This document shows, one piece after another, positions 8,990 to 63,718 of a stretch of DNA of 64,000 nucleotides. Both the position numbers and the translations under genes were made by a program. How positions within the stretch are numbered: the first letter of the stretch is position 1; the number at the start of each line of letters is the position of its first letter. The DNA is from Gammaproteobacteria bacterium (lineage in GTDB: Bacteria > Pseudomonadota > Gammaproteobacteria > Eutrophobiales > Eutrophobiaceae). The notes below the pieces were generated by a model. The model was not told the origin of the DNA and ran no database searches. It worked only from the letters and a program-made list of their open reading frames with translations. Location of the stretch: assembly GCA_965222155.1 (NCBI GenBank), contig CBDCTH010000004.1, forward strand, positions 1 through 64,000, read 5' to 3'.

Positions 8990-11900
8990 AGCAGTCATGG
9001 GGATACCTTATGTGTGAAAGTCCTGTTTGGGTGACTCGATCACGGACCAACCATACATCGAAGGGCGCCCAAGCACAAAGGGAGTGCTCATGAAGGTGGG
9101 TTTGCGAAAGGCAGTTGCAGGTCAACAAGGAAAGTGGCAGGAATTCGAGAGAGATAAGTTTGATGAGGTGTTAGACCAACTTCTGGCAAGGGGATGCGCC
9201 AACTACTCCACAAAGGCTACTGCACTTGCACCATCCCTTAATTAAGAGGATGGAAATTTCATCAGCACAACATAAAGTCAGCCAGAAGGATTCTGAGACC
9301 AGTGCAGCTGCTTCGGCGATGCCGGCATCGATGGTAGCAGATGATGGCTGTGAAATCACAATGGGCCTCGACGAGTTCATGAAGGTTCTCGAATTTTCCA
9401 AAGCTAAGGAGGCGGATTTCATGCAGCATGCATAGGCGCCGGAGCCGGTCCGGCCATGGCCGGACCGATTTCCAAAAAGTGTACTTCCACCACGAGCTGT
9501 TTGCCACAGACTTCCGGTCTAATAACTATAGCCGATTAAATAAGTAATATATTTATTCCTGCTTCACCCCCATAAAGGAAGCTTAGGAATATTGCCGGCG
9601 GGATGTTAACTCATTGACGACGATCTCTCCAAGTTGAAGTTCTGTAATAGACACGGATGAAGCCAGAAACTTGGTACCCGGATGCGGAAGAAGTATCGTC
9701 TCTGCTTCCTGTTCATGGCTTCAGTTTCAGGCCTTCCCGAAAAGCCACATCAGCCAGTCGAGTTTAATTTCCCACAAAGAACATTTGGGTATCAGAAGAT
9801 CGCACGGTCTTTCCAACCCACGTGGTACAAGATACATAGTTATTGCTTGATGATAACACTTCAGGCTTAGTACAATAGCACCCACGAGACGATATCTTAG
9901 GAGTGCAAGGAATCGTTACTCAGAAGCATTGTAGTCCGCATGCACAAATCACGTGATAGATCACGCCCTCGACAACGCCTTTTAGCGCGCGTTAGGCCGG
10001 ACCGGGTCAGATATGCTTCCGGCGCCCCTGGCATGTAGAGAAGCTTCAACTTGAGAGGTCGGCTATTGTCACTCTGATGGATCGTGGAGGACAAGAACAG
10101 TACCTGTCAATACACGCAGCTCTGATGGCAGATAGCAAGGCCAGGCTATCTTGTGGTTATTGATATCACCAAGCCACTCGACGAGAAAGTGAATGTTTCA
10201 AAGTTCCGTCGTGAGGAAGGTGGAGTCATCGAGCAGCAGCGAGAAACAAAGACAAGAGCAGCCACTCTTCGCCACTGGATTGCTGCCGTTGAAGCTGCAC
10301 ATCCACCCGGTGCACCATCGCCTCAACAATTCCTAGGGAAAAGCCATGGAGTCAAGCGACCTCCTGCCGTCTTCATTGTCATCACCAGAAAGGATCAAAT
10401 TGAGAATCTCAGCTCGGAATTCGTCCAGATGCAGGAGCAGCTGCTACGTGATGTGATCAGTGAAAGTGAACATTTTGCTGATCACTTGGTTCCGTGCCAG
10501 AAGGATCCATGGAATGTTCTGTTTTACGTGGACAACACCAAATCTGGCAAGGGAGATCCGTCGAGCAGTTGCAGGATATGATAGTGGAAATGGCCCAAGC
10601 TCATTCTAATGAAGGAGAGGGCACACCACTGACATACGTCATGCTAGAATTAGGTCTCAACAAGGTCAGCCGAATAGCCAGCAATCAAGGCAAGGTGCTC
10701 GAGCTCAGCAATGTCTTCGGATTGGCCAAACTAGTATGTGAGCTCTCCCCTGGTAGAGAATGCACCACTGCCCTCAGATACCTTAGCAACATGGGAGCCA
10801 TCTGTTTCTATCAGGAAGAGCCCGGTCTAGAGAAGCAGATCTTTACTGATCCGCAATGGCTGGGTGATGTGATGTCCACGTTTGTCACCGTCCTTAGTCA
10901 AGAAAATGTTCCTCCAACGTTGTGGCACGACCTAGCAAAGCTCCAACGTGAAGGTCTGATGACCTAGAATCTCGCAACGTATCTCCTACATAAAGCTAAA
11001 GTGGATGTGTCAGTTCGAGGTCCGATCTTGCGAGTATTGCAGCTGTTCAACATCATTGCTCCATCTCTCAAGTCTCCCACCCATCCAGAGGCCTTTGTAA
11101 ACGTGGGTGATGATTTCTTCGTCCCATCTATGGTGCTTGCAGAATACAGCAAGCCCCCTGCTTATGGGCCGGCCATCAGTTCACTTTCGGTCGCCCCGCC
11201 TCTGTTTCTGTGTCCAAAGGGTTTTACTGCCTTCCTGAAACCTCTCTTTTATCGGCTCATATCTCGTCTGGTCACAAGATACCAGTATCGACCCAATGTC
11301 AGACGTCATCAGGTTATCCTTCATCTTCCTCCTTACCTCGAATTAGAGATGGCTTACACAACGTCAGCAGTGATCGCAACCGTCTATTCTGCCGATCCTG
11401 CTAATCCCCCACCGTTGACAATATTACGAGAACACTGCAGATTCCTGAAGGGATTCTTAGTAGAACAATTGAATCAAGCTAAACGACGTGGCATGGACGG
11501 CTTCCAGTTTGAGGTGTGCGTCCACCCAGTCGGAAACGAAGTAGACTATGAAGAGCTGGCGTGCATTGACAACTACCCGAGCAACCCTCTTATCAACAGA
11601 CGAGATGACCTATTGGCTATGACCCAGTGTCCAATGCTCGATTTATGGATTGATGAAGATCAATGTGAAGGTATAATGGCTATTCAGATTTGCTATAAAG
11701 TGTTTAACTAATAAACCTATTTGGCCTCTATAACTGCTAGTGTGTTGTGGACGTTCATTTTCCTGTTTGTTACATTTGTAATTACCAAAGCCACAGCGTG
11801 TAATTGCAGACAATAGTATATAGTCCCTGTGGGAGACAACATCTTGAAGGCGATTCCGTGGAGTCTTGGTGTCTATCTTCGTTGGTATTAAATGTAAGAA

Positions 11901-12678
11901 AGACTTGACAGCATCTCATTGCAATAGAGAATTTGGAAGTGGGACCTTTGTGTATAGCTCAGAGCTTGGTTGCCTGACGATCTTGTAGTAAGAATTTTAC
12001 CGTGCTCAAAGAAATATCATACCGACGATAATGACGAGGCAGCACATACATACGATCGCGTGTAAATCAAACGGATCTATCTGGGTTCTTGGTTGTAGAC
12101 TATCTGTCATAGTTTTTTGTATAGCGACTGCAAACAGTTTTATAGCTGTTTGTTATGTTAGTGGATGTCGATTTCATAAATGATACACATACTATGAACC
12201 TGCCGGACCGGATAATGTTTATATAATTGCTAATTAAATATCTTGAATAAAAGGCTAACTAACATAAAGTGCTCATGTCAGAAGATGAATAGATTTTGTG
12301 ACAGGTGGAGAGACTGGTACACTGTTGTCACCCTTACGGGCAGAACAAGCTGACGCTCCTTCAATTGCCGCTGAGGCTGACGGCAAGGTAGAATCGAGAC
12401 TCCTTGTGTCTGTTGCTCAGAAAATTGCTGGTGTTTGGGAGGAGATCGCTGCATGGCTCTCGCCAGAGCTGTTCTCTACTTTGAAGACGAAAGAGATCGA
12501 ACGGGATCACAGCAGCTCATTCTCTCGAGCTCGAGCAGTTCTCGAAACCTGGAGCCGTGAGGTTGGCAGCAAAGCTACTTGTCGACGGCTAATCCAATCA
12601 TTGTGCCAAATGGGGCAAAGAGCAGTGGCAGCTGAAGTATTTGGTTCCGAGTTGGTTCAGTTTGTTCAACCAACTTGA
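8990..12678 (+). pseudogene. Disrupted ROCO-type gene: Roc GTPase + COR + C-terminal Death domain
   Basis: Roc motifs PSTKGV (G2), LMDRGGQEQYLSIH (G3, about 10070-10120) and VFIVITRKD (G4). COR motifs ALRYLSNMGAICFY...IFTDPQWL and LQLFNII...FFVPSMV. Intron 11671-12304 precedes a Death-domain exon (IAGVWEEIAAWL...AVLETWSR...LIQSLCQMGQRAVAAEVF). Lesions: damaged P-loop region, frameshifts near 9230, 10140 and 10560, in-frame TAG at 10965, and a MITE insertion. Confidence 0.8.
9431..10030 (+). mobile_element. Non-autonomous hAT element (600 bp) inserted in the Roc domain
   Basis: TIRs CATAGGCGCCGGA / TCCGGCGCCCCTG, subterminal GGCCGGACCG repeats and flanking duplication GCATG. The internal remnant LPEKPHQPVEFNFPQRTFG...RSFQPTW resembles the N-terminus of ZMYM1/TTF-type hAT transposases. 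Confidence 0.85.
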
Positions 12679-31692: not shown

Positions 31693-42932
<11,240 letters not shown>

Positions 42933-60500: not shown

Positions 60501-61350
60501 TCAGGTCTATATGTACATTTGCAAAAGCCTCATTCGGAGGTGTCCTTCCAAGGCATTGTGGCATTCCTCAAATTTATGGCAGTCACTACAGAATTATTTG
60601 CTAAATAACTTCCACATCAATCACCTCTCCTCAAGGGCATTCTACTACATTTCATGGAGGTCTAGAATTTTGCTAACTGAAAATCATATAATGCCACACC
60701 ATGCCAATCAACAGCCCACCTGAAAGGAAACATGCAGTCGTTCTGTCTGTATAGCCTGTGCTTGATAATCTGGTAGTGCACTCCTTTGGACACTGCTTCA
60801 TCAAAAACTTCTTTGCTAATGCCATCCTTCCAAATGCTTAGATCTTCCTCAATCACAGACGAATAGCATCCACCATCACACTTTTCAGTAGAACATTCCT
60901 CGTACAGAGAAACAGCCTCATTAATATTCTTCATGTACTTCTCCCAATGGCCATCTACACAAAACAATTAGATGACAAAAATGGATATCATCCACAAAGT
61001 TAGAAGAGCCGCAGATGGATCAACCAGTACAGTATACATAGAAGACCAATGAAGATATTCATCCACTGTACTTCTAAAATGAACATGCAGGACAAAAACG
61101 TTGACTTCCTTAGTGAAACTTTTTAGGTAGCTCTATAATATATCCTCAAAAATACGTGTTCACCAGCGTTAGGCGACGTTAACGCGCGCTAGACATGCAG
61201 CTTACGTTTGGAATATTTGCCAGTCACTCGGCTTTCAGCCTCATCTATGCAGCTTCCAGCTTCGTCTCTGCGAGTACAGTGGCCTCCTTCTGATTCGCCC
61301 TTGCAACACACCAATAACAAGAAGAAACAGACAGCCACAGGCATTGACAT
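57532..61350 (-). CDS. POGLUT1: Protein O-glucosyltransferase 1 (Rumi, CAP10/GT90 family), multi-exon
   Basis: Signal peptide [18 protein letters not shown] (alternative ATG at 61368). Then [30 protein letters not shown]...[93 protein letters not shown]. Stop at 57532. Confidence 0.96.
59379..59491. mobile_element. Short hairpin MITE of a TAGCCTCGTCCCCAG-terminated family (other copies 60215-60351 and from 5139)
   Basis: Termini TAGCCTTATCCCCAGC / GCTGGGGACGAGGCTA with internal inverted symmetry. The same terminus occurs at 5139 and 60215. Confidence 0.75.
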
Positions 61351-61402
61351 CCTGTCACTACCACGCATGCGCACAATAGAGACACGTGTCACAAGAACGA
61401 TT

Positions 61403-61456
61403 GTATTTATCAGACTACCAGGAAGTCTTTACCTGGCAATCGTCATTACACAATAC
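61403..61456 (-). promoter_or_regulatory. SECIS element 2 (distal) in the 3' UTR of the selenoprotein gene
   Basis: RNA: GUAUUGUGUA-AUGAC-GAUUGCCAGG-UAAAGACUU-CCUGGUAGUC-UGAU-AAAUAC. AUGA/GA core, fully paired 10-bp helix II, apical AAA and helix I GUAUU/AAUAC. Confidence 0.88.
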
Positions 61457-61515
61457 ACCCTTGCAATTTGTTCATTCTAATTCTGTACACTACAAAAGAC
61501 CAGCTTCTCTGGCAT

Positions 61516-61577
61516 GTCACTAACAATCAGACATTCCTGCCGTGTGGGGTTTAACAGAAATGCATCATCAATGTGAC
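61516..61577 (-). promoter_or_regulatory. SECIS element 1 (proximal) in the 3' UTR of the selenoprotein gene
   Basis: RNA: GUCACAUUG-AUGAU-GCAUUUCUGUU-AAACCCCACAC-GGCAGGAAUGUC-UGAU-UGUUAGUGAC. AUGA/GA core, 11-bp helix II with one bulged C, apical AAA and helix I GUCAC/GUGAC. Confidence 0.85.
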
Positions 61578-61633
61578 CATAGCCATAAAAACTGGTTAAA
61601 AGGTACATCATATTCCAAAGTCATCCCAGCCAT

Positions 61634-63301
61634 TTACTTTGCTCGAAGTTCTCTCCACTTTTGCCGTATTTTGAGGCACTGCTGTTTGATATTTGCATTC
61701 CACATAACACCAATAGCCAAAAGAACAAACCCGGTGTACGTCAGTATTACAGTGAAGAGAATGCCAACTGAAGTGAGGCAATGAACATTTTCTGATTCAC
61801 AGCCAATACGGTACTCAGCTGAGCCCTACAACAACACAAAATGGTGGTTAACATACAGGTACAGGTCTGACAAACAGTGGGAAGTGTCAGCTGTGCTAGA
61901 AAGAGCTGGAGGATGACAATGCACTAAAAGAGGCTGGAGTCAACATTCCCCTGGCATAGCCTCCTCCTTGAGCTTGTCATTCCGGATACTCTCCAGGGCA
62001 TGTTGACAAATAGTTCGACCAGTTCATTCATTACGCCATCACAATTTCAGAGCCAGCGTTGATGGACAGTCTTAAACTCTAGATCAACACACCATGCTTG
62101 AAAGAAGTTGGGCACTAACAGGTGAGTCAGTTTTCAAGTTTCCCTAACCAGGCATACTACACTCCTAAACCATTGCAGTGGTCTGTCTTTCACTCTCATC
62201 AGGCAACTAGGTGTTTCTCAAGGAATTCATGTGCTACACCTGATCAGTGCAAGTCAATTTCTGAAATGTGATCATGACTCATGGTTAGGGAGGTAAAGGG
62301 GGTCTGTCAATGTTGTGTTCAAATTAAAGGGAGGGTAAGAATTAATCCAAACATTGTTCAGACTTCAACATTTTATATATGTCCCCCAAACCATTTCTGT
62401 TTCACAAACATTGATTTATCACTAACCACATTACTAGTACTCTAGCCAGTGACGACTACCATTTCCAGTTACAACGTGTCAAGTACAGCATGGATGAACT
62501 ACATATAGGAAATGCACACAGCATAAGTTCAAAACAGTACATCTTTTTATGGTCCTATACGCTTTCGCTTCAGCTGTAGTAAGCAAATTGAATTTCAGTA
62601 GTACATAAACAAAAGATAAGAGAGACAGGGATTGCTCCTCTAAAGAGTTTTGTTGAAGCTGATATTCTAGCGTAAACAACTTTGAAGATTACTCATCAGC
62701 CTTTTGGAGGGATTACTCTGTACACTAAACGGCTGCTACAGCACCACTGTGACGTCACGTACACAACATGGGGACAAAAAGACCTGTTCATTACCATTCC
62801 ATTCCTCATGCTACTAGGCCAAAGACCACCGTCCTGCAGCACGTGACGCAGCGGTTCCGCCATGATGAAGATGGACGCCAACACGACGAGAATGAGAGGC
62901 CCGTATTTGTCTGGCCCTTTCCTCTGCCTCGCTTTGTAGATAATGTAGATGAGTAGTAGCAACAGCATAGTGGCTGTTATGACGATGCCCACTATGTGAC
63001 CAATTGACCGCGCTGCCGCCGTCACCGTCCCCGAAAAGAGGCCAATGACCAGCGCGGGCCAACATCATGCGCCAATAAGAGCCGGAATAGAGAAGATAAG
63101 AGTCAGGATAGAGATGACCAACCCTCCTTTGCCTCCCTTCTTCTTCCTCATTTTCTTTCCATCTTCTATCTCCTTATCGAACTGCGACCCGCTGTTCACG
63201 GTGCCAGCCTTCTCGCCGAACAGAGGCGTTGTCTCGCTTTCTCAGTCACCGCATTCCACGTCTGATTCGACCTTCTTGCCTTCGGACGGCATGGCACTCA
63301 T
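61634..63301 (-). CDS. Multi-pass membrane selenoprotein (MSP-like) with two in-frame UGA/Sec codons; exons 63301-62795 and 61825-61634, 232 aa
   Basis: ATG in good context (AAACAATG). Exon 1 reads MSAMPSEGKKVESDVECGD[UGA]ESETTPLFG...KGGLVISILTLIFSIPALIGA[UGA]CWPALVIGLF...YGPLILVVLASIFIMAEPLRHVLQD...NGM. A phase-0 GT-AG intron follows. Exon 2 reads GSAEYRIGCESENVHCLTSVGILFTVILTYTGFVLLAIGVMWNAN...KWRELRAK-TAA. The UGAs at 63242-63244 and 63065-63067 are the only interruptions, and two SECIS hairpins lie downstream. Confidence 0.88.
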
Positions 63302-63718
63302 TGTTTACTTCCAGAAACGTAGGTCTTTCGCAAATATGATGATGCAAAGATGCAATGAGCAACCGGAAGGCAAGTCACAAGACGAGTCACAAGACTGTCT
63401 CAAGTTGCTAGCAATACCTGCCCGTATGACATGACATTAGGAGGCGTGGCAAATGCGATTGAGCCCAAGTAATAAGGGACCGTCCGTAATTGCCGTATTT
63501 TTTAGTAGAGAGATAAACCAGGGTTAGTTGAAATTATTTGTGGGCAGCCATATGCATGTAAACAGTGCTTTCTTGTCTCAATTTTTACTAGCTAGCTACA
63601 CAGCAATTATTAGTTCAGTACAAACGTTAATTAACGTTTCAATAGCAGTCTGTAAATTATAAGTAAGCATTCCAATTTCAATGTCATACCCAGCTGCATG
63701 AGGGGAAAGTATGGTGTT

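Follow-up and report, generated by a model that had tools for sequence, protein, structure and literature searches.

MSP is a predicted membrane selenoprotein with two selenocysteine (Sec) residues and a eukaryotic Sec insertion sequence (SECIS) element; the available part of its description records it from Dictyostelium, Chlamydomonas, Volvox and two Ostreococcus, 'only in unicellular eukaryotes', and reports a 75Se band for the Dictyostelium protein (Lobanov et al. 2007, Genome Biol 8:R198). A 2020 algal survey, in its openly available portion, gives MSP as occurring almost exclusively in the Sec form, and a 2020 review places it among predicted selenoproteins whose function is not known. 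MSP is not mentioned in the accessible portion of a 2012 survey of six invertebrate selenoproteomes, where the two SECIS elements of SELENOP are mentioned (Jiang 2012), nor in an Archaeplastida paper or a fungal preprint, and we found no report of it from animals in the openly searchable literature, subscription papers and supplements lying outside that search. Here we describe a gene resembling MSP on the minus strand of a 64,000-nucleotide stretch of DNA (hereafter the window), which forms bases 1-64000 of contig C4 (622,150 bases) in an assembly filed as a prokaryote. We conclude that this is, with good probability, an intact, transcribed, two-exon nuclear gene of an animal-looking eukaryote, encoding a 232-residue, four-pass membrane selenoprotein in which both UGA codons are read as Sec by means of two SECIS elements. 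That the gene is real and Sec-decoded appears highly probable from its sequence and that of its relatives, and the core of an initial annotation of this DNA, which had proposed two Sec codons and two SECIS elements in a gene for a membrane selenoprotein, is upheld.

Among well-known selenoproteins, SELENOP transports selenium and is secreted; it combines a thioredoxin-like domain with a tail rich in Sec, and the 3' untranslated region (UTR) of its gene holds two SECIS elements that serve several Sec codons. The gene described here likewise has more than one Sec codon served by two SECIS elements in a single 3' UTR, but the proteins have no likeness in sequence or architecture, the window protein being a small four-pass membrane protein. 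Other eukaryotic selenoproteins are membrane-anchored: SELENOK, SELENOS, SELENOI and SELENON carry a single Sec, usually near the C-terminus, and have uncertain or redox functions. They share membrane anchoring with the window protein and differ from it in their single Sec and their topology; none of the four appeared among the matches of any search that we made.

Gene structure, transcript-like contigs and SECIS elements

The minus-strand frame comprises 232 codons, from an ATG at 63301 to a TAA at 61634, and crosses one GT..AG intron. Its ATG (63301-63299) is the first to follow an in-frame TAA located immediately upstream (63307-63305), and the base at -3 is an A. Coding exon 1 (62795-63301, 169 codons) encodes an acidic N-terminal tail with the motif C17-x-x-U20, a first transmembrane helix (TM1), the pair U79-C80, a short helix, TM2 and TM3. 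The intron that follows is in phase 0 and 969 nt long (61826-62794; donor GT at 62794-62793, acceptor AG at 61827-61826), and the homologue P0023, which is 84% identical, reads ...RNGM-GSAEYR... over the same exon junction (marked here by the hyphen). Coding exon 2 (61634-61825, 63 codons plus the TAA at 61636-61634) encodes an outer loop with the pair C178-x6-C185, TM4 and a basic C-terminal helix; its blocks C..E...CLS, TY.GF and WNANI are conserved and align with homologues. The product can be aligned with its homologues down to the last residues, and the frame is otherwise intact.

Within these 232 codons TGA occurs only twice, at codon 20 (63242-63244) in the context V-E-C-G-D-U and at codon 79 (63065-63067) in the context G-A-U-C-W-P at the end of TM1. 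The four Trp codons of the same gene are all TGG. The frame, the phase-0 intron and the two TGA codons with their contexts had been proposed in the initial annotation, and all proved correct to the coordinate. It had also warned that ordinary gene callers would truncate such a gene, which is what has happened to the closest relatives: the database models of P0003 and P0023 both begin 3' of the second TGA.

Four public sequencing runs (X1 to X4) cover the stretch; none is recorded as RNA, and all were consulted as contigs, not reads. X1 and X2, which may be the source of the assembly itself, each hold the region 61200-63500 in one identical piece. In X3, two contigs join 61825 straight to 62795 and leave out the 969 bases that start with GT and finish with AG on the minus strand, and this exon-joined form is absent from X1 and X2. 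An X3 contig over 62832-63263 shows no differences from the window and includes both TGA codons. Another, over 61389-61826, extends as a run of 23 T on the plus strand, which corresponds to poly(A) on a minus-strand RNA, 11 nt past the second SECIS element; this poly(A)-like end at 61389 is seen in a single contig and is a hint of the 3' end only. We call X3 RNA-like from the exon-exon joint and the poly-T loose end only. X4 belongs to a second study and agrees with the window throughout 62940-63100, second TGA included, and X1, X2 and X3 all carry both TGAs unchanged. Contig depth was about 1300-1700 on the exon contigs versus about 58 on the intron contig, figures that allow no ranking of expression. 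The predicted splice and the unaltered TGA codons were thus recovered in transcript-like contigs, as was the placement of both hairpins within the apparent transcript, upstream of the poly(A)-like tail.

The 3' UTR, if it ends where the X3 contig does, measures 245 nt (61389-61633, minus strand) and contains two SECIS-type hairpins. SECIS 1 (61516-61577) follows the pattern AUGA-12 nt-AAA-UGAU with the larger apical loop; it matches the Rfam SECIS_1 model with 27.8 bits (E 0.015) and has a folding energy of -25 kcal/mol (z -2.39). SECIS 2 (61400-61454) reads AUGA-12 nt-AAA, the last in the apical loop, with a 10-bp helix II and UGAU; it scores 26.7 bits (E 0.029) and folds at -27.8 kcal/mol (z -5.32), an energy equalled by 0 of 200 shuffles. 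Both lie on the coding strand, directly 3' of the stop, and carry the canonical AUGA, AA and GA motifs. An Rfam scan of the whole 64-kb window listed the first hairpin (E 0.3) and no SECIS_1 match beyond this 3' UTR. A constrained-fold SECIS detector of our own returned eight matches on both window strands (128 kb), two of which fall in these 245 nt. The claim of two eukaryotic-type SECIS hairpins after the stop is therefore borne out by Rfam (at scores under its cut-off), by folding and by this detector.

Folding of two other detector matches, both on the minus strand (34488 and 60687), gave structures that do not resemble SECIS elements. An earlier, more rigid detector was dropped, having missed SECIS 1 of this gene, and a MAFFT alignment of three SECIS elements was structurally inconsistent and hence was not used to build a covariance model. 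Within the 3' arm of SECIS 2, the hexamer AUAAAU (61405-61410, minus strand) is a candidate variant poly(A) signal; it precedes the apparent end of the RNA (61389) by 16-21 nt and, from its sequence and place, possibly serves in that role. Further downstream, a neighbouring minus-strand gene (window 61206-61367) starts no more than about 25 nt past the apparent poly(A) site. Its first exon encodes a signal-peptide-like start, and the X3 contig over this exon diverges at 61206; the GT next to this point is suggestive of a splice donor.

Homologues and the reading of the two UGA codons

A search with exon 1 retrieved 22 proteins, mostly of about 240 residues and encoded on contigs of about 1 kb, and short-form homologues from metagenome contigs are about 45-57% identical to the window protein. 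A profile run against 1.84 billion representatives had 562 matches at E <= 0.001. The homologues come from metagenome and metatranscriptome contigs, with one from MMETSP. Neither the word-index protein searches nor the profile search yielded an informative name, and a protein-cluster search with the homologue P0005 returned only 'hypothetical protein' clusters (best 0.90), a Mucoromycota cluster at 0.87 being a lead only. Among the profile matches listed, about 55 of 150 begin within a few residues past profile position 70, which corresponds to the second Sec site; such starts are the mark of gene calls truncated at a TGA.

The residue printed at this second site is usually Trp. It is W in 18 of the 21 rows of the exon 1 homologue alignment that cover the site, C in two and the window's own sequence in one; across all 30 stored proteins covering the site there are 24 W and six C, the latter made up of five true Cys forms (P0005, P0011, P0035, P0056 and P0085) and the window's own entry. 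Many database homologues print W at the first site as well. We therefore turned from stored translations to DNA, with a degenerate pattern for G-A-[TGN]-C-W-P-A-L-V-I-G (GGN GCN TGN TGY TGG CCN GCN YTN GTN ATH GG) in which any base is allowed at the third position of the critical codon. This pattern retrieved 72 metagenome loci, and the open codon was TGA in all 72; TGG, TGT and TGC were never found. Since the codon in homologous DNA is always TGA and never TGG, the W of the database proteins is most likely TGA translated as Trp by gene callers, the census being one of homologous loci and not of the DNA of the W-printing proteins themselves. Trp in the homologues, which the initial annotation had named as a sign against Sec decoding, is on this evidence most likely an artefact, and the U or C expected at aligned position 79 is present as TGA in every locus and as Cys in five proteins.

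The N-terminal site could be followed in the same loci. An in-frame C-x(2-6)-TGA occurs at the matching N-terminal place in 46 of them, which agrees with the U anticipated at position 20; in 12 others its place is taken by an Rdx domain that has a CxxU itself, and the remaining 14 show neither. The spacing between Cys and TGA is two residues in six loci, as in the window gene, four in 29, five in nine and six in two.

SECIS-like folds accompany the family. Among the sense 3' UTRs of homologue loci our detector, a crude one, recovers such a fold in no more than 21 of 52, compared with one of 52 antisense and three of 52 coding controls. Two loci, L023 and L061, have two separate SECIS-like folds each, as the window gene does. 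With Rfam at E <= 1, run on 20 of the 72 loci, SECIS_1 was found in L023 only, where it scores 37.2 bits and exceeds the 35-bit cut-off. Taken together, the TGA census, the Cys forms and the SECIS-like folds of the homologues make Sec the one sensible reading of both codons of the window gene. One of the loci, L053, has a partial bacterial SSU rRNA (782-1265, 142 bits) beside its selenoprotein gene, which marks a chimeric contig.

Several observations weigh against this reading or parts of it. Both hairpins score under the curated 35-bit cut-off of Rfam SECIS_1 (RF00031), and the second was not listed by the whole-window scan. X3 is a run of unrecorded kind, from the same study as the runs possibly behind the assembly (X1 and X2), and the start codon and 5' end (63264-63301) fall in a gap in X3 contig coverage. 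For the first TGA, the support for decoding is the conservation of the motif in homologues, and the 14 loci that have no N-terminal Sec motif include some that are cut at the 5' end and others that seem complete. The two exons match no Pfam family above cut-off; a structure model of the homologue P0005 finds no match in the PDB at E <= 0.001 (Foldseek; best E 0.11, TM <= 0.28), and its pLDDT is about 58-67 around the first helix and the equivalent of the Sec-Cys pair. The eukaryote DNA covered amounts to only about 72 kb, too short a stretch on which to judge the Sec machinery (tRNA-Sec, SBP2, eEFSec, PSTK, SepSecS and SPS2). The assignment to MSP was made by comparison with published descriptions.

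How the two codons are read could be explained otherwise in three ways. Translation might start past codon 20, for example at Met51, so that the first TGA would lie in the 5' UTR and only the second UGA would be decoded, giving a protein with one Sec. The gap in RNA contig cover at 63264-63301 and the loci with an apparently complete N-terminus but no Sec motif would suit such a start, but 46 loci, from widely differing organisms, have an in-frame C-x(2-6)-TGA at this N-terminal position, the acidic run before the Cys and the P-L-F after the Sec fit the family consensus, and ATG 63301 is the first after an in-frame TAA, with its A at -3; we give this explanation a slim chance. A decaying pseudogene in which the TGAs simply act as stops, or errors of assembly at these codons, would account for a standard-code frame broken twice and for the truncated database models. 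This explanation is close to refuted by the agreement of the runs (X1 to X3 for both TGAs, X4 from a second study for the second, without differences), by contigs that join both exons, by TGA in every one of the 72 loci in a frame that is otherwise intact and conserved to its last residues, and by SECIS elements placed where they are needed. A genetic code in which TGA means Trp would explain the W printed at site 2 in most stored proteins and at site 1 in many, and is about as improbable. The window gene writes Trp as TGG four times and has TGA solely at two redox-motif sites, five homologues have Cys and not Trp, none of the 72 loci has the TGG that a real Trp position would use, and SECIS-like elements are enriched in the sense 3' UTRs. 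The reading that we retain is Sec at both codons.

Family assignment and host DNA

This Sec-decoded gene is probably of the same family as the MSP of Lobanov et al. 2007. Hydropathy and the P0005 model agree with a membrane protein, the window frame holds two Sec, and the family exists almost only in the Sec form (TGA in all 72 loci, with five Cys forms among the stored proteins covering the site). SECIS elements are a further likeness. MSP is found in marine green algae; the window family is abundant in metagenome contigs. The two differ in that MSP was reported in 2007 from unicellular eukaryotes only, whereas the present gene lies in animal-like DNA, and in that the MSP papers, in their available portions, are silent on two SECIS elements and on domain fusions.

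The DNA itself is of mixed character. The assembly has 4.55 Mb in 12 contigs, with a completeness of 100 and a contamination of 7.28. The first ~72 kb of C4 have a GC content of about 0.42, an open reading frame (ORF) density of about 0.1 and almost no long ORFs; past about 72,000 the contig changes abruptly to a GC of 0.52-0.60 and an ORF density of about 0.8, which is bacterial. By these compositions, the selenoprotein gene sits in eukaryote-like DNA joined to a bacterial contig, most likely through a chimeric assembly join of host and bacterial DNA. Transfer of ~72 kb of eukaryote-like DNA into the bacterium was considered and judged unlikely. On the plus strand of the window, exons at 10126-12678 encode a COR-A-like segment (32.1 bits, under the 35.3 cut-off) and a Death domain (28.1 bits, above its 22.6 cut-off); the window further contains a DDE_3-like transposase remnant, kilobase-scale introns and few ORFs. 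Death domains are largely confined to animals, and a ROCO/death-fold gene such as this one is typical of them. Judged by such sequence features, the DNA is likely to be of animal origin. The earlier statement that the gene lies in an animal-type genome stands in so far as the DNA is animal-like, with its Death domain and COR-like exon; the placement in an early-branching animal stays a proposal. The window is the eukaryote-like end of a chimeric contig in a prokaryote-filed assembly, a setting that an annotation made from the letters could not reveal.

Both the family and the host have a competing explanation. The gene could encode a real two-Sec membrane selenoprotein of a family never described before, and not MSP. 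The assignment by description, the lack of an informative name among the homologues, the lack of a Pfam family at cut-off and the motif string UCWP, found in no relevant openly searchable paper, all leave room for it. Yet the window family fits the MSP descriptors (a predicted membrane protein, two Sec, almost only the Sec form), it is abundant in metagenome contigs and has a homologue from MMETSP, and it would be surprising for another two-Sec membrane family of such abundance to have gone undescribed; a new family is thus unlikely, though a good deal less so than the alternatives for the decoding. The host, for its part, could be another eukaryote than an animal, for example a protist living with the bacterium, in keeping with the short-form homologues at ~45-57% identity from metagenome contigs and with the filing of the assembly as a prokaryote. 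A Death domain above cut-off beside a COR-A-like exon, the DDE_3-like remnant, the kilobase-scale introns and the low ORF density speak against this, and we regard a non-animal host as improbable. We thus keep to an animal-like member of a known, uncharacterised family, probably MSP.

Two further features of the assembly deserve mention. The best tRNA-Sec match (79.4 bits) is at 608210-608298 of contig C12, a contig of bacterial type (GC 0.53, ORF density 0.86); if this tRNA-Sec is bacterial, the bacterium would have its own, separate Sec system. Within the window, a palindromic hairpin at 40387-40503 gives Rfam mir-1278 matches on either strand, at 43.6 and 40.3 bits (under the cut-off of 61), and probably represents an inverted repeat, not a microRNA gene.

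Membrane architecture and a possible redox relay

Hydropathy of the window protein reveals four hydrophobic stretches. An AlphaFold2 model of the Cys-form homologue P0005, computed from 54 aligned sequences (mean pLDDT 74.8), has four long helices, a short helix right after the C-C pair that is equivalent to U79-C80, and an amphipathic C-terminal helix. Mapped from this model onto the window protein, TM1 spans residues ~58-79 and is followed by U79-C80 and the short helix (81-89); TM2 spans ~95-125 and leads through a basic loop, K-A-R-Q-R-K (125-131), into TM3 (~131-159), which ends in the invariant L-R-H-V-L-Q-D; then come the loop with C178-x6-C185, TM4 (~188-211) and a basic tail. The even number of helices, the basic loop at 125-131, the basic C-terminus and the domains of NADPH-dependent redox systems fused at either end of some relatives suggest that both termini are cytosolic. 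U79-C80, the nearly invariant R98, H102, R152, H153 and D157, and C178/C185 would then be on the side opposite the termini. Sub-threshold Pfam matches to BaxI_1 (21.1 bits, cut-off 26.2) and DUF1218 (17.2 bits, cut-off 25.3) were not accepted as a family, and the best Foldseek matches in the PDB, CorA chains with a TM of ~0.2, were rejected.

The family is large, and its members seem to come for the most part from marine eukaryotes. Its hallmark is the vicinal Sec-Cys in IPALIGA-U-C-WPALVIG, where the first membrane helix ends. A second Sec is present in most members, within a short C-x(2-6)-U motif near the N-terminus, and the acidic run before the Cys and the P-L-F after the Sec of the window protein fit the family consensus ...C..U...PLL. 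Some relatives are long forms of 400-560 residues (for example L001, L021, L052 and L056) with an insert in the TM3-TM4 loop that is rich in Cys and in N-x-S/T; its composition suits an extracytoplasmic, disulfide-bonded, glycosylated loop.

Other relatives are fused to redox domains. Twelve of the 72 loci are of the Rdx class (L002, L005, L008, L020, L028, L036, L045, L057, L060, L064, L069 and L072), with an N-terminal Rdx/SelW-like domain that scores 51.2 bits in L002 and 52.8 bits in L072; the same fusion is found in P0190, P0191 and P0194. In complete Rdx-fused loci, the two in-frame TGAs belong to different selenoprotein modules, and the short N-terminal motif is absent. In the available part of a 2020 algal paper, GST-MSRA was called the first fusion of two selenoprotein genes. 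At the C-terminus, L009 (931-2355, minus strand) carries a glutaredoxin (61.8 bits), P0107 and P0084 carry thioredoxins (86.4 and 74.6 bits), and P0146 carries Pyr_redox_2 and a dimerisation domain of the thioredoxin/glutathione-reductase type (189 bits). Among 146 representatives, Pfam at E <= 1e-5 recorded thioredoxin in three, glutaredoxin in two, Pyr_redox in one and a ricin lectin in one, with no other domains. Since the Rdx- and glutaredoxin-fused forms do not have the short C-x(n)-U, this motif and the thioredoxin-fold modules look interchangeable.

These features recall several known redox systems. In the Rdx family (SELENOW, SELENOT and SELENOH; PF10262) the likeness is the CxxU, and twelve relatives carry a true Rdx domain, but the window protein itself has a bare C-G-D-U in an acidic, disordered-looking tail, with no Rdx match in Pfam. 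Thioredoxin reductase has a C-terminal Gly-Cys-Sec-Gly centre, capable of forming a selenenylsulfide, on a flexible soluble tail. It resembles the window protein in its vicinal Cys and Sec, and the relative P0146 is fused to a flavoprotein domain of the thioredoxin reductase/glutathione reductase type; in the window protein, however, the order is Sec-Cys, the pair is at the end of a membrane helix, and no flavin or NADPH domain is present. DsbD/CcdA, DsbB and VKOR, the last with thioredoxin fusions, are membrane thiol-disulfide relays. They too are small helical membrane proteins with a redox pair at a helix end beside a proline, a conserved pair of loop Cys and recurrent thioredoxin-fold fusions. 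The likeness is one of mechanism only: no Pfam or PDB fold match links the window protein to them, it uses Sec, and it is not a member of these families.

On the strength of the motifs and fusions, we favour, with some reserve, a membrane selenol/thiol redox relay in which the Sec-Cys pair is recharged by a thioredoxin-type donor at the termini. The membrane Sec-Cys pair would cycle between a selenol/thiol and a selenenylsulfide form, and a thioredoxin-type module, on the same face of the membrane as both termini, would recharge it. In the window gene this donor module would be reduced to a minimal N-terminal CxxU peptide, and in the relatives it would be the SelW-like, glutaredoxin, thioredoxin or thioredoxin-reductase-like domain. 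Counting against such a relay is the geometry: if TM1 fully crosses the membrane, the N-terminal CxxU and the Sec-Cys pair end up on opposite sides, and it is not evident how the two would exchange directly. A bolder proposal, which we think doubtful, is that the family conducts electrons through Sec, either across the membrane or inside it, as a selenium-based equivalent of DsbD/CcdA or VKOR that an animal has kept. A cytosolic thioredoxin-type donor, here the CxxU peptide, would reduce the membrane-embedded Sec-Cys, and the pair would then serve the conserved cysteines of the outer loop or a substrate in the lipid phase. If true, the gene would also be the first animal record of a family so far known from unicellular eukaryotes only, or perhaps of one never described. 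The domain fusions, for their part, provide the first testable functional hypothesis for the family.

The gene also carries a practical warning. Protein databases show its Sec sites as Trp or start the protein past the second TGA, and the gene itself lies in eukaryote-like DNA joined to a bacterial contig of a prokaryote-filed assembly. An expressed MSP-type member in animal-like DNA would widen the set of animal selenoproteins, and its interest would be higher if the family proves undescribed or a transmembrane Sec relay is shown.

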